A DNA stretch of 63,578 bases. It comes from Spirochaetia bacterium (GTDB lineage Bacteria > Spirochaetota > Spirochaetia > CADAEX01). Made by a program: the position numbers and the translations under genes. The first letter of the stretch is position 1, and every line of letters starts with the position of its first letter. Location: NCBI GenBank assembly GCA_017554185.1, contig JAFZIU010000009.1, positions 1 to 63,578 of the forward strand, written 5' to 3'. The notes under the pieces were generated by a model. That model searched no databases and had not been told where the DNA came from. It worked only from the letters and a program-made list of their open reading frames with translations. Below, in pieces: positions 50,185-61,577 of the stretch.

Positions 50185-51387
50185 TTGAAGAAGACATTGG
50201 TAATAACAGCTGCGATTATTCTTGCTCTGTTGGCCACGGCTGGTATTATTTCTTTAACACAAACAAAAGACTCACATCCAAAAGAAGAGGCACAGCAGCC
50301 TAATGTCCGCATAATGGAAGAAAACACTCAGATATCTAACCCTGTCGAAGAGGCAATGCAATTACAGATTGCTGAACTGAGGGCACAGGTGGAAAAGCTT
50401 GAGAAGGAGAAGGGCCAGGCTGAGTTCGACCGTTCTGCACTTAAGTCCGAGCAGGATAAGCTCAGAAAGCGGATAGCAACACTTGAGGATCAGAATCAGT
50501 ATCTCCGCGGCAGGAACAAGGCTTTGAGCGACGAAGGCCTGCGTCTCCAAGGGGATGTTTCCTCAAAGGAAAAAGATATTGCTTCTAAAGCAACCGAGAT
50601 AGAAGCCCACGAGGCAGAGATTGCGACACATGAAGCCGAGATTGCTGATCTTAAGGAACAGCTTGATCAGCTTGAACAGCTTGTAAAAGAACGTGAAACC
50701 GAGATTGCTGCATTGAATGAACAGCTTGACCATGCAGCCAAAGAGCGTGAAGCCAGTGAGGCTGCATATCAGGCAGCTTTAGCCAAGATCGATGAATATA
50801 ATGCTCATCAGACAGTTTCGGATGCAACTCTGACCGAGGCCAATACAACAGGCACCAGGGTTACAGAAAAGGGAGATACTGTTTCAACATTTGGCACACT
50901 TAATGCCGGGCAGACCCGGAATATACTTGGAATTAAAATAGGCGGTTCTGACATAGATATAGAAGGCACATTTGCCCTCATGCCGCACTGGTTCCTGATT
51001 GGCGATTTAGGGGCAGTGGAGGTTCCCAAAGACTTTGTGAAAGATGAATTCCCAGGCCTTACCGCAGACCATGCCTTTGTTTATACCGCACTCTTTGGAA
51101 CAGGACTCAACTGGCGGTTCAACTCTATCCAGAGTCAGCCTAACATCTATTTAGCAACCATGGCTGGTCCAGCCTGGTATTTATATAAGGAAGATAACAG
51201 GAACGAAATCAACACATATCTGCTGTGGAGATCTTCTATCGGATTTGATATGACATTGTATAAGAATCTGCAGTTCACTACAGATTTGAGTGTAGATTGG
51301 ATGAAGAATTATGGATTCACCCCGCATCTTACTGTGGGACTCCAGTGGAGTTTCAGCAACAGCTGGGCGTTGTTCGGTGGCAGATGA
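50185..51387 (+). CDS. Signal/anchor + long coiled coil + predicted 8-strand outer-membrane beta-barrel (A)
   Basis: TTG start; hydrophobic N-terminus; heptad-rich middle; eight amphipathic strands ending TVGLQWSF. Confidence 0.7.
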   Translation: MKKTLVITAAIILALLATAGIISLTQTKDSHPKEEAQQPNVRIMEENTQISNPVEEAMQLQIAELRAQVEKLEKEKGQAEFDRSALKSEQDKLRKRIATLEDQNQYLRGRNKALSDEGLRLQGDVSSKEKDIASKATEIEAHEAEIATHEAEIADLKEQLDQLEQLVKERETEIAALNEQLDHAAKEREASEAAYQAALAKIDEYNAHQTVSDATLTEANTTGTRVTEKGDTVSTFGTLNAGQTRNILGIKIGGSDIDIEGTFALMPHWFLIGDLGAVEVPKDFVKDEFPGLTADHAFVYTALFGTGLNWRFNSIQSQPNIYLATMAGPAWYLYKEDNRNEINTYLLWRSSIGFDMTLYKNLQFTTDLSVDWMKNYGFTPHLTVGLQWSFSNSWALFGGR

Positions 51388-51405
51388 CAGGAGGTACTTG
51401 CTGAT

Positions 51406-54400
51406 ATGTTCAGAAAAACACTATATATATTTTTAGCTTTATGTATCTCGCTCTGTATTTTCATCGCCTGCGACAACGGTGTTGCCTTTGTCAACGAGAT
51501 GAAGGAGGACACATCTTCCGGCGGTGGCGGCGGCGGTGGTGGCGGTTCCACCCTGATACCTATTACTGTTACTGCTGATTTCAAGGAGAAGTACTATGAT
51601 CCAGATGCGGCTTCTCCTATGCCTGATCCCGAACTGACTTATACATTTAGCCCTGATCCTTTACCGAGCGGTGTAGAAATAGTTGGATCTTTAACACGTG
51701 AAGCTGGTGAGAATGTAAATTATGAGCCTGGATATGCTATAACCCAGGGAACCTTAGCTCTATCGGGAAAACATGCAAATAAGTATTCTCTTTCATATGT
51801 AGGCAATTATCTTGCAGTTTATGAGAAAGGTGTAATTTATGTCAAAGCTGATGCAAAAACAATATATGTAGGAGAGGCTGCCCCAGAGCTTACCTTCACT
51901 TCTCAGCCGAGAGCAGCAGCCATGGCAGCATGGGCTGAGCCAGTATACTTTAGCGGCCAGCTCACATGTCCAACACTGAACACATCTGTTGCTGGTGAAT
52001 ATCCGATTGCTTACGAACTTACATTGGAAGGGGAAGGGGCTTATTCTCATAGGATTGTTCCCGATGAGACTCCTGTCTATGTTACAGTACTGAATCCTAA
52101 TGATATTCGTATCACTGCTGATGATAAAGAGATGATTTATGGAAGTTCTCTTCCTGCTATAACCTGGTCACCCAATACTCGGCCTGATGGAATATCATTT
52201 AGTGCAACTGGTAGCGATGCACCATATTATACTGTCAGTTCAAGCACAGAAGCTGGTGAATATGATAATGCTATAAGAGTAGACCGTATTAAAATAATAG
52301 ATGATGCCACCGGGAATGTATCAGCAGTTTATTCCCCAGATTACCATAATGGTAAAATGACTATCACCAAGAGAACATTGACTGTCAGGGCCATTGCCCA
52401 AGGAATAAAGGTTGGTGGAGCTCCTGCTGCTCTGGATTATACATATGAGGGAATGCTCGACGGTGATGATCCACACGATAAAGCCGCCATATTTGATGGC
52501 AGTCTTTCTTGTCCGACTTTGAATGTAAATGCCATAGGCAGTTACCCTATAGAAAGCAGTCTTACGCTTAAACCTGCGTTTTTAAATAAGTATGTTATCA
52601 ATTATGTCCCTGCGAATGTAGTGGTTTCTTCAAAAACAGCAGTTACTATAACTATTGATTCAAAGCAAAAATACTACAATGACAACAACCCAACGCTCAC
52701 TTACTCTTCAAGTCCAGTGTTGCCAGGTGGAGCTTTTGATGGAAGCCTTGCTACAACGGCTACAAAGACATCTCCTGTGATTAACGGAGCGTATGAGATT
52801 AATATTGGAGACCTCCATCTGACTGATGGATATTACAGTACATATGAAATAATCAATCCAGATGTCACCAGTACCCTTACTATACAGAAAAAGCCTCTTA
52901 ATATAACTGTGGTCAACCAGACCAGAACCTACGGCGACAATCCGAATATGCATCCTTTCAGTTTCATCAGCAATCCAGTTCTTCCTAATGGAGCATTCCA
53001 GAACCTACAGGGCTTCTCCTGTGCAGTCAATGCTGCCACCCCAGTTTCTGCATCGGAAAACGACAGGAAAATAACCCGGTCAACATTTGGTCTGGCACAT
53101 ACAAAGGATGAAAATAATAACTATTATGATGACAACTACAGTATTGAAAACGGAACCTGGACAAATGGCCTTGTCACTATAAATCCAAGGCCTGTTCATG
53201 TGACAGCAGATGCAAAGGCTGTATATAAGGGCGCGGGTAGTTATCCGGAATTCACTTTCACCACAGACTGTGGTCTTACAAAAGATGATTTTAACGGAGC
53301 TTTGGAATGTTCTGGTGATCTTAATACATCAGGTAAATACGATATTACCATGAACAGCAGTTTTGCTCTTAAGTCGGGTCATGATAATTATTCTTTTGAA
53401 AGGACAAATGAATATTATACCGGTGCTAAGCTTACTGTTACAGAACAGACTCTGGTAACAATTCACATCAATGATGCAGAAAGATATTATGGTGATGCCA
53501 ATCCGTCATTTATTTACTATACAGAACCGGGATTACCTCCTGGAGCACTGACTGTAACGCTTGCTTGTACTGCTACTTCAACAACCCCAGTTGGAAGCTC
53601 AGGTGATGCATATAAGATAACTATAGCAAGCTATCAGCTGAATGGCGATTACGCTACAACTCATGCCATTGAGAATCCAAGTACGTATGGTATATTGACT
53701 ATTAATAAGAAACCGGTTGATATTGTTGTCCTCAACCAGACCAGAACTTATAGGGATAGTCCCGCATCTTATCCCGTTGACTTTGTTAATAGTCTGGGAC
53801 TTCCAAAGGCTACTGCCTTCACAAATTTGACTGGTTTTATCTGTAATGTCAGTGCAAATACTCCGGTGAATGCTTCAGCTGAGGCCAGAAAGATTGCACA
53901 GGACACAAGCAATACAGGATTGAAACTTGCTCATGCAAAGATTGGAGCAACTGATAATTATTATGATGAGAATTATACTATCGGCACTTTCACCGATGGT
54001 CTTGTGACAATAAATCCTAAGCCTGTTACTATTTCAGCAGATAACAAGACAGTCCTTGTGGGTGTTGCAACGCCAGGATTGACGTTCACTTCCGACTGTG
54101 ATAGTTATGGAGTTGGATTTGCAGGCACCCTTGGACTGGATCCTGCTAGAACAGACTTCGATTTAGCAACTGATTACGAAATTACCCAGGGGGGTGTTGT
54201 CTTAAGTTCTGCAAACGATAATTATGGGAATCCGTCTAATGTAAATTATTCAATCGATAAATATAATAGTGCAGTTCTTACCGTTACACCAAAGATTCCT
54301 ATTAACGTAGTTGCTGTAGATAAAACCAAAACCTTTAATAATGGCGGTTCTGATCCGGCTTTGACATATCTGTATACTCCTCCAAAGGCAGGAATAACAG

Positions 54401-61544: not shown

Positions 61545-61552
61545 TTTATAAG

Positions 61553-61577
61553 AAACCCAGCCGAAAGGCTGGGTTTT
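61553..61577. terminator. Bidirectional intrinsic terminator with the same stem as 56121
   Basis: AAACCCAGCC-GAAA-GGCTGGGTTT. Confidence 0.9.

Follow-up and report, generated by a model that had tools for sequence, protein, structure and literature searches.

Two-gene cassettes in a Spirochaetia contig

The DNA analyzed here (the window) is a 63,578-nucleotide (nt) stretch of contig JAFZIU010000009.1 (assembly GCA_017554185.1), assigned to a Spirochaetia bacterium. It contains two cassettes, A (50185-56112) and B (57343-61544), each of which pairs a gene for a predicted stalked outer-membrane barrel (genes 1A and 1B) with a gene for a large lipoprotein (genes 2A and 2B; Table 1). An earlier note on this stretch, prepared from the sequence with no database searches, had described both cassettes as sharing gene order, TTG start codons for gene 1, tight coupling between the two genes and identical terminator stems, and the open reading frame (ORF) map agrees with this description.

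The products of genes 1A and 1B align over their full length with 53% identity (E 2e-151), and those of genes 2A and 2B show approximately 26-31% identity in local alignments. The hairpins following the two cassettes have identical 10-bp stems, with loops TTTT and GAAA, respectively. In both copies of gene 1 the TTG start codon is preceded by AGGAT and seven nucleotides. The N-terminus encoded from this codon (MKK and a hydrophobic run) is kept in more than 100 homologs, and the homolog in locus L041 presents an ATG at the equivalent codon, indicating that the TTG starts of genes 1A and 1B are real. The database protein corresponding to gene 1A (P0010, 357 amino acids [aa]) begins at an internal Met and includes neither the TTG start nor the hydrophobic anchor (window 50185-50313), so that the architecture of gene 1 is hidden in public annotation.

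Table 1. Coordinates of the two cassettes, of the segments of gene 1A and of neighboring features in the window.
Feature	Position	Strand	Description
tRNA-Leu(CAG)	39090-39173		Left edge of the surface-lipoprotein island
Four PARCEL/DUF285 lipoprotein genes	39358-49392	+	Translationally coupled, overlapping; 765, 655, 965 and 960 aa; lipobox ...GCDNGS
Small lipoprotein gene	49626-50078	+	150 aa; lipobox LFCSC; only weak Ig-like/PKD Pfam matches
Gene 1A	50185-51387	+	Predicted anchor, coiled-coil stalk and eight-stranded outer-membrane barrel; TTG start; 400 aa
Gene 1A, hydrophobic segment	50194-50259	+	Residues 4-25, uncharged; signal anchor or possibly cleavable signal peptide
Gene 1A, motif	50296-50322	+	Residues 38-46, QPNVRIMEE (PPVRIIED in subtype I); segment identity 0.72
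Gene 1A, stalk	50341-50835	+	Residues 53-217 (165 aa); one continuous heptad helix, predicted coiled coil; AlphaFold2 pLDDT up to 97
Gene 1A, barrel	50920-51357	+	Residues 246-391; eight amphipathic beta-strands, OmpA/OmpX/NspA-like barrel as modelled; conserved tail (392-400) follows
Gene 2A	51406-56112	+	MBG_2 and PARCEL/DUF285 lipoprotein; 1568 aa; 18-nt gap after gene 1A
Hairpin after gene 2A	56121-56144		AAACCCAGCC-TTTT-GGCTGGGTTT; bidirectional terminator
Rpn/PDDEXK_2 gene	56171-57052	-	Recombination-promoting nuclease or transposase; between the cassettes, not part of the system
C9 tract and promoter-like sequence	57220-57228 and 57229-57257	+	C9 abutting TTGACC-17-TATATT; candidate phase-variable promoter of cassette B
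Gene 1B	57343-58623	+	Paralog of gene 1A with longer stalk; TTG start; 426 aa
Gene 2B	58623-61544	+	MBG_2 and DUF285/PARCEL lipoprotein; 973 aa; 1-nt overlap (ATGA) with gene 1B
Hairpin after gene 2B	61553-61576		AAACCCAGCC-GAAA-GGCTGGGTTT; bidirectional terminator, also serving the convergent rubrerythrin gene
Rubrerythrin gene	61604-62143		Other edge of the island

Predicted architecture of the gene 1 product

The AlphaFold2 model of the gene 1A product, built with a 64-sequence alignment, comprises a short N-terminal helix, a disordered linker, one long helix, a second linker and eight strands. These strands are antiparallel in both the full-length model and a model of the barrel alone (predicted local distance difference test [pLDDT] 83, predicted TM-score [pTM] 0.76), and hydrophobic and polar residues alternate within them. 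A profile search of Protein Data Bank (PDB) sequences with the barrel gave no match even at an E-value of 10, and a fold comparison was therefore needed. The best PDB matches returned by Foldseek were NspA, the OmpA transmembrane domain, the OprF N-terminal barrel, OmpX and Ail, with a probability of 1.0 and TM-scores of 0.58-0.73 (TMq 0.58-0.62 and TMt 0.61-0.73 for 1qjp, 4rlc and 1p4t) at a sequence identity to solved barrels of about 10%. As modelled, the C-terminal domain of gene 1 is thus an eight-stranded outer-membrane barrel of the OmpA/OmpX class, a transmembrane-type fold and not a soluble sandwich. The layout first read from the sequence, with a hydrophobic N-terminus, a coiled coil, eight strands and an end of the form GLQWSF...W...GGR, holds in these models. 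The last strand of gene 1A ends in GLQWSF and is followed by a conserved nine-residue tail, NSWALFGGR, so that a beta-signal would be internal.

Pfam searches relate the barrel to the YdiY-like family DUF481 (PF04338), with scores of 27.6 bits for gene 1A (30.1 bits for the barrel alone) and 21.2 bits for gene 1B against a gathering threshold of 21.1 bits. This family is matched by 15 of 19 gene 1 family members at E <= 0.01, with PagL and OMP_b-brl as secondary matches, and the NCBI record for one homolog reads 'DUF481 domain-containing protein'. DUF481, PagL and OMP_b-brl are families of outer-membrane barrels. The alignment is partial, spanning only model positions 81-179 of 210 and hence not the whole model, and canonical DUF481 proteins were not recovered in an exhaustive profile search with the gene 1 barrel. 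Under Pfam rules, gene 1 would be a marginal and partial member of DUF481. Kinship with spanins, TonB or VirB10/TraB, to which weak NCBIfam matches pointed, was rejected as compositional noise from coiled-coil and transmembrane segments, with scores far below the cut-offs.

If the N-terminus of the barrel is periplasmic, as in OmpA, its longest connection (18 residues) and its long beta5-beta6 hairpin, similar to the sheet that protrudes in OmpX, Ail and NspA, are extracellular. This modelled placement suggests that the stalk is periplasmic. The heptad phase of the long helix is constant over most of its length in both paralogs (residues 53 to approximately 185 in gene 1A), which identifies it as a predicted coiled coil. 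At 0.15 nm per helix residue, the 165-190 residues of the stalk correspond to about 25 nm in gene 1A and 29 nm in gene 1B; a coiled coil of roughly 150-190 residues and 22-28 nm had been anticipated, in line with the helix modelled for gene 1A. Such lengths are comparable to the width of a periplasm; the literature on treponemal periplasm widths yielded no usable number. The stalk is presumably oligomeric, its heptad composition being compatible with a dimer and a trimer alike. In P0126, the most divergent member of the family, a small Flg_new-like domain together with two linkers of 43 and 41 aa, both rich in Pro and Glu, takes the place of the coiled coil. If extended, these approximately 84 linker residues, at roughly 0.3 nm each, would have about the reach of a 165-residue helix. 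The conserved feature is hence a long spacer between anchor and barrel.

An uncharged, Lys-flanked run of 20-22 residues is found within the first 45 residues of 109 of 119 gene 1 homologs. Column identity is 0.72 for this segment and 0.73 for the barrel, against 0.38 for the following linker, and conservation reaches at least 90% at P39, V41 and R42 of the short motif that precedes the stalk. Other long-stalk relatives (P0122 and P0123) present a canonical lipobox, LLIAC or LLVAC, at the position of the anchor, and P0126 begins with a 20-residue charged or polar tail followed by a transmembrane segment. The short-stalk relatives (241-270 aa), in turn, have ordinary cleavable signal peptides, and we read this distribution as a long spacer accompanying a distal membrane anchor. 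The consensus LLAAAG in the uncharged segment has small residues at -3 and -1 that could define an AXA-type signal-peptidase site, but it is preceded by no helix breaker or polar c-region and followed by hydrophobic residues. The length and conservation of the segment, taken with the anchors found in relatives, indicate that the N-terminus of gene 1 is probably an uncleaved membrane anchor.

Gene 1 is followed by lipoprotein genes

The products of genes 2A and 2B carry lipoboxes (FIAC-DNG with Cys22 and FISC-DNG with Cys21, respectively). Mature gene 2A starts with CDNGVAFVNE and continues with a linker of nine Gly residues, eight MBG_2 domains (6e-47) and C-terminal PARCEL/DUF285 repeats (1.2e-22), whereas mature gene 2B starts with CDNGIAFVND and contains seven MBG_2 domains (1.6e-57) and DUF285/PARCEL repeats (2.2e-11); TIGR02167 was also matched. 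The N-terminal peptide of the partner lipoproteins, C-D-N-G-[VI]-A-F-V-N-[DE], is conserved even though the whole proteins are only about 30% identical. In the earlier note gene 2 was a giant lipoprotein with MBG domains and leucine-rich repeats; the MBG_2 domains and the lipobox stand, but the repeats are of the BspA-like PARCEL/DUF285 type and not classical leucine-rich repeats. The Gly run of gene 2A is encoded by nine GGC/GGT codons (51520-51546) directly after the conserved peptide. This stretch may provide a flexible linker, and its length might be variable, the repeat being a simple one.

To examine the downstream gene across the family, ORFs were called in all fetched loci and barrels were located with a hidden Markov model (HMM), resulting in 49 unique combinations of gene 1 and downstream gene, about 42 of them readable. 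The next same-strand gene begins with a lipoprotein signal in 39 of these approximately 42 cases, which encompass five gene 1 subfamilies and include P0126. The linkage to lipoproteins proposed for the window is therefore shared by its homologs, with exceptions such as L051, where a helix-turn-helix (HTH) protein is encoded next to gene 1.

The five subfamilies differ in spacing and partner. In subtype II (...QPNVRxMEE), to which genes 1A and 1B belong, all 16 cases are tightly coupled, with nominal gaps, taken from longest-ORF calls, of -47 to +18 nt (mostly -4 to +1), and the partner is an MBG and PARCEL lipoprotein starting FI[AGS]C-DNG(G)[VI]AFVN[DE]. Subtype-I genes (...PPVRIIED) are separated by 70-157 nt (1 nt in L016) from a gene for a 400-520-aa lipoprotein (LFASCSNG), after which PARCEL lipoproteins are encoded. 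The lipobox-type members are followed after 15-21 nt by a gene for a lipoprotein starting LLAAC-DSGGGGSDDDD (partner start CDSGGGGSDDDD). Short-stalk members directly precede a 98-aa HTH-like ORF, with the lipoprotein gene after that, and P0126 overlaps by 1 nt with the gene for a lipoprotein starting GFVSC-DNGG.

Two further observations concern these cassettes. A leader motif, GCCGATAA-N7-9-(A)GAGGTA, is located directly 5' of many gene 1 starts (50150-50184 in the window), including those of subtype-I genes in L001, L007, L011, L013, L016, L017 and L018, and may constitute an extended ribosome-binding or regulatory element. In L044 (approximately 6500-6800), the partner lipoprotein gene of a subtype-II cassette contains an in-frame stop soon after the conserved N-terminal peptide, denoting either a pseudogene or an assembly error.

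Distribution of the gene 1 family

A word-indexed search identified 121 gene 1 homologs, all at least 45% identical, of which few are named, as 'MAG: Spirochaetia bacterium' (MAG, metagenome-assembled genome). With a divergent alignment, the same type of search recovered only 10 proteins, and with P0126 as the query nothing but P0126 itself. An exhaustive HMM search with the barrel profile against 1.84 billion representatives returned only eight clusters (50% identity), with no distant relatives beyond them and no member in cultured or pathogenic spirochaetes. On this result, no sequence link could be drawn from the family to OmpA, OmpW or the eight-stranded barrels of Treponema pallidum. Those source records that carry a name belong to rumen MAGs, almost all with a Spirochaetia label, and in the one-genome-per-species GTDB set the matches are to MAGs from the rumen of goat, yak, sheep and buffalo. 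A tblastn search of plasmids with gene 1A gave no match. A 1.7-kb contig with a gene 1 homolog (L015, JAFZYX010000238.1) is binned in a 'Ruminococcus sp.' MAG, probably through misbinning and not because a Firmicute acquired the gene. The restriction of the family to eight clusters, with named records from rumen MAGs, indicates that gene 1 is not a general route for lipoprotein surface display in spirochaetes.

Genomic context and candidate phase variation

Subtype I and II loci lie in a hypervariable island, between tRNA-Leu/YmdB and rubrerythrin, whose gene content differs among related metagenome contigs. The array equivalent to the four PARCEL lipoprotein genes of the window is led, in relatives, by a subtype-I gene 1, which the window lacks. 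These four lipoproteins have an N-terminal domain in common with the 400-520-aa lipoproteins encoded after subtype-I gene 1 in relatives. Orthologs (141-146 aa) of the small lipoprotein encoded ahead of cassette A are likewise found upstream of gene 1, often in subtype-II cassettes, in L001, L003, L013, L019 and L021. Relatives such as L004 hold a single subtype-II cassette before the rubrerythrin gene, and cassette A and its terminator stem hence look like a recent duplication or insertion. The Rpn/PDDEXK_2 gene between the two cassettes likely marks a rearrangement.

The C9 tract upstream of cassette B was compared with the homologous sites of near-identical relatives, which together present C7, C8, C9, C10, C11 or C12 tracts at this position; subtype-I genes have upstream poly-G tracts of G5/G7 or G10/G11. 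Tracts of these two kinds, found in L001, L003-L007, L009, L011-L013, L020 and L021, adjoin the -35-like box of the gene 1 promoter. In T. pallidum, poly-G tracts upstream of the tpr genes and tp0126 mediate slipped-strand phase variation (PMC7864442). The length differences observed here suggest phase-variable expression of gene 1 cassettes, at least of cassette B. Cassette A has no homopolymer tract and may be transcribed by read-through from the small lipoprotein gene.

Additional features were noted outside the cassettes. Near a short-stalk homolog, L024 (4843-10446) encodes a 1199-aa Flg_new_2 and Lcl_C protein, and bAvd and reverse transcriptase genes come next; the arrangement has the appearance of a diversity-generating retroelement with a surface protein as its target. 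Within the window, a two-gene unit is present three times at 17665-24425, encoding an HTH and Cupin_2 protein (191, 186 and 185 aa) and an AMP-binding enzyme (548, 552 and 571 aa), with domains read from the syntenic loci L001 and L007. The guanine-cytosine content falls to approximately 0.30-0.34 at 4001-6000 and 30001-34000, compared with 0.45-0.55 elsewhere, and these segments may be foreign or glycan-locus DNA.

Comparison with known envelope systems

In OmpM and SlpA, which presumably link the outer membrane to inner envelope layers, a triple coiled coil lies between an SLH domain and a porin barrel (PMC10628300, PMC9388160). Like OmpM of diderm Firmicutes, SlpA of Deinococcus and Omp-alpha of Thermotoga, gene 1 combines a distal anchor module, a long periplasmic coiled coil and a C-terminal outer-membrane module, and by analogy it would work most like the stalked tethers OmpM and SlpA. 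Unlike these two proteins, gene 1 carries no SLH domain detectable with Pfam or NCBIfam at E <= 0.1, its putative anchor being a hydrophobic transmembrane-like segment, or a lipobox or transmembrane segment in relatives, and its barrel is predicted to have eight strands, as opposed to 16 in OmpM and 30 in SlpA. Its stalk is two to three times longer than those of OmpM, SlpA and Omp-alpha, and gene 1 differs from all three in being multi-copy, apparently phase-variable and paired with a lipoprotein gene. No sequence homology with OmpM, SlpA or Omp-alpha was detected in the PDB profile search or the exhaustive HMM search. In OmpA, the periplasmic extension is a C-terminal peptidoglycan-binding OmpA_C domain, whereas in gene 1 it is an N-terminal coiled coil with a putative membrane anchor.

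Other systems bear a partial likeness to the cassettes. As in Slam/type 11 secretion, the gene for an outer-membrane barrel adjoins that for a surface-type lipoprotein. Slam barrels, however, have 14 strands, compared with the eight predicted here; gene 1 has no DUF560 or TPR domain, the barrel gene comes first and is translationally coupled, and the stalk and putative inner-membrane anchor have no counterpart in Slam. The Pfam search, which detected no SLH or Slam domains in gene 1, supports the distinction that the earlier note had drawn from both types of system. TolA (helical) and TonB (Pro-rich) also extend a spacer from an N-terminal transmembrane anchor toward the outer membrane, with the spacers of P0126 being TonB-like, and VirB10 inserts into both membranes as one chain. 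No homology between gene 1 and these proteins was found and no ExbBD/TolQR-type partner genes lie nearby, and the outer-membrane end of gene 1 is, as modelled, a complete covalent beta-barrel.

The lipoprotein RcsF is held by, or threaded through, the OmpA/C/F barrels (PMC4942254, PMC7553776). Gly-rich or acidic linkers after the lipidated Cys in several gene 2-type partners are reminiscent of this arrangement, but RcsF is a small stress sensor that uses general porins and OmpA, and contact between the partners reported here is putative. Searches of the available literature turned up no account of a stalked barrel paired with an adhesin lipoprotein in spirochaetes, in agreement with the initial impression that it is not a named system. 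Stalked outer-membrane tethers as such are known; what sets this family apart is its unusual kind of anchor and the lipoprotein gene dedicated to it.

Proposed function and alternative explanations

We propose that each cassette is an operon for two proteins, with gene 1 encoding a strut and gene 2 a giant surface adhesin lipoprotein. The N-terminus of the strut would be an uncleaved anchor in the inner membrane, its middle region an oligomeric coiled coil spanning approximately 25-29 nm across the periplasm, and its C-terminus an eight-stranded OmpA/OmpX-like barrel in the outer membrane. At the outer membrane, the strut would partner specifically with the lipoprotein encoded on its own transcript, and its barrel would hold the conserved lipidated N-terminus of gene 2. 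The adhesin would in this way be mechanically coupled to the cell body, and a pull on it would not tear or bleb the loosely attached outer membrane of the spirochaete. We assign a probability of roughly 40% to gene 1 acting as a strut across the envelope on which the cognate adhesin lipoprotein is docked and braced. It is rather doubtful that, as a single chain with an inner-membrane anchor and an outer-membrane barrel, this 25-29 nm strut, dedicated to one co-translated and phase-variable adhesin, represents a new class of load-bearing anchor. With regard to the trans-envelope partner initially envisaged, the outer-membrane barrel, the lipoprotein linkage and the anchor-like N-terminus are all in its favor, but the support is partial: an export role is weakened, and a general spirochaetal display route is incompatible with the narrow distribution.

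Several observations weigh against the proposed strut. Gene 1 is missing in front of the four PARCEL lipoprotein genes of this island, and subtype I is more loosely coupled to its downstream gene. All subtype I and II loci reside in one syntenic island of one lineage, so that many of these cases are not independent, but P0126 and the lipobox-type members, which lie outside the island, are coupled to a lipoprotein gene as well. Stalk length varies widely, with total lengths of 332-428 aa across the family, and the stalk is hence not a strict ruler. The AXA-type site in LLAAAG would allow a cleaved signal peptide. Insertion of a polypeptide in both membranes is rare, VirB10 being the one precedent to our knowledge, and both the physical contact between the products of genes 1 and 2 and the bracing role are what we infer.

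A different role, which we regard as unlikely, is that of an export or assembly factor bringing the lipoprotein to the surface, either through BAM co-assembly around the linker or as a Slam-like conduit of oligomerised barrels. The conserved and translationally coupled order of barrel and lipoprotein genes follows the same genomic logic as Slam and its substrate, the Gly linker of gene 2A and the CDSGGGGSDDDD start of the lipobox-type partner could thread a narrow barrel, and interlocked assemblies of RcsF with outer-membrane proteins exist (PMC4942254). An eight-stranded barrel, however, has no usable pore and is too small for a translocon, and gene 1 presents no similarity to DUF560, TPR or Omp85. 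Furthermore, a long stalk and an inner-membrane anchor are needless for an outer-membrane translocon, the four sister PARCEL lipoproteins of the island have no such partner, and this family is missing in every other spirochaete with surface-displayed lipoproteins.

The putative signal-peptidase site raises a second alternative, to which we likewise accord a low probability: an OmpM-like tether with a cleaved signal peptide, in which the stalk hangs into the periplasm and the PNVRIMEE/PPVRIIED motif binds peptidoglycan or another periplasmic structure. The small residues at -3 and -1 of the consensus ...LLAAAG-I..., the location of a short conserved motif at the distal end of the stalk and the clearly cleaved signal peptides of short-stalk relatives all fit this scheme, and the order of distal binding module, coiled coil and barrel parallels that of OmpM and SlpA (PMC10628300). 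The features of the N-terminus itself argue otherwise, as the putative site follows a 20-22-residue uncharged run without a helix breaker and precedes hydrophobic residues, the segment is as strongly conserved as the barrel, and relatives have a lipobox, or a polar tail and transmembrane segment, at the same place. In addition, no SLH, OmpA_C, LysM or other peptidoglycan-binding domain was detected with Pfam and NCBIfam.

It is also conceivable, but improbable, that gene 1 is a general envelope spacer or tether unrelated to the neighboring lipoprotein, and that their co-location reflects the shared history of a variable surface-protein island. The confinement of all subtype I and II loci to the tRNA-Leu/YmdB-rubrerythrin island and the 70-157 nt separating subtype I from the next gene would be accounted for in this manner. 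Nonetheless, a housekeeping tether would be expected to be single-copy, constitutive and widespread, whereas gene 1 is multi-copy, located behind length-variable tracts and limited to eight clusters, with no subtype I in the window; the recurrence of coupling outside the island and start-stop overlaps of 1-4 nt, typical of co-translated partners, also favor a dedicated pair. Finally, an extracellular stalk forming a fiber like that of trimeric autotransporters (type Vc), with the monomeric barrel as an artefact of single-chain modelling, deserves very little credence, since the resemblance in domain order (signal, coiled-coil stalk and C-terminal beta-domain) and the weak Foldseek matches to autotransporter beta-domains (TM-scores of only 0.15-0.4) are countered by a closed barrel with eight strands per chain instead of four (pTM 0.76), by the lack of a YadA_anchor match and of a head domain, and by a conserved transmembrane-length or lipidated N-terminus that would make no sense at the external tip of a fiber.

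Implications for the spirochaetal envelope

Little is understood of what attaches the fragile spirochaetal outer membrane to the cell body, or of how lipid-anchored adhesins bear force. The significance of the cassettes is limited by their presence in a few uncultured rumen spirochaete lineages and by a function that is read from gene neighborhood. Within these bounds, the gene 1 family offers a concrete design, consisting of a putative membrane anchor, a long spacer (coiled coil or Pro-rich), a small predicted barrel and a co-encoded surface-type lipoprotein. If the products of genes 1 and 2 interact, they would constitute a dedicated barrel-lipoprotein pair of new architecture. Should the proposed strut prove true, gene 1 would be a further example of the few proteins known to span both membranes, and would represent a new kind of outer-membrane attachment in bacteria without Lpp- or OmpM-type tethers.

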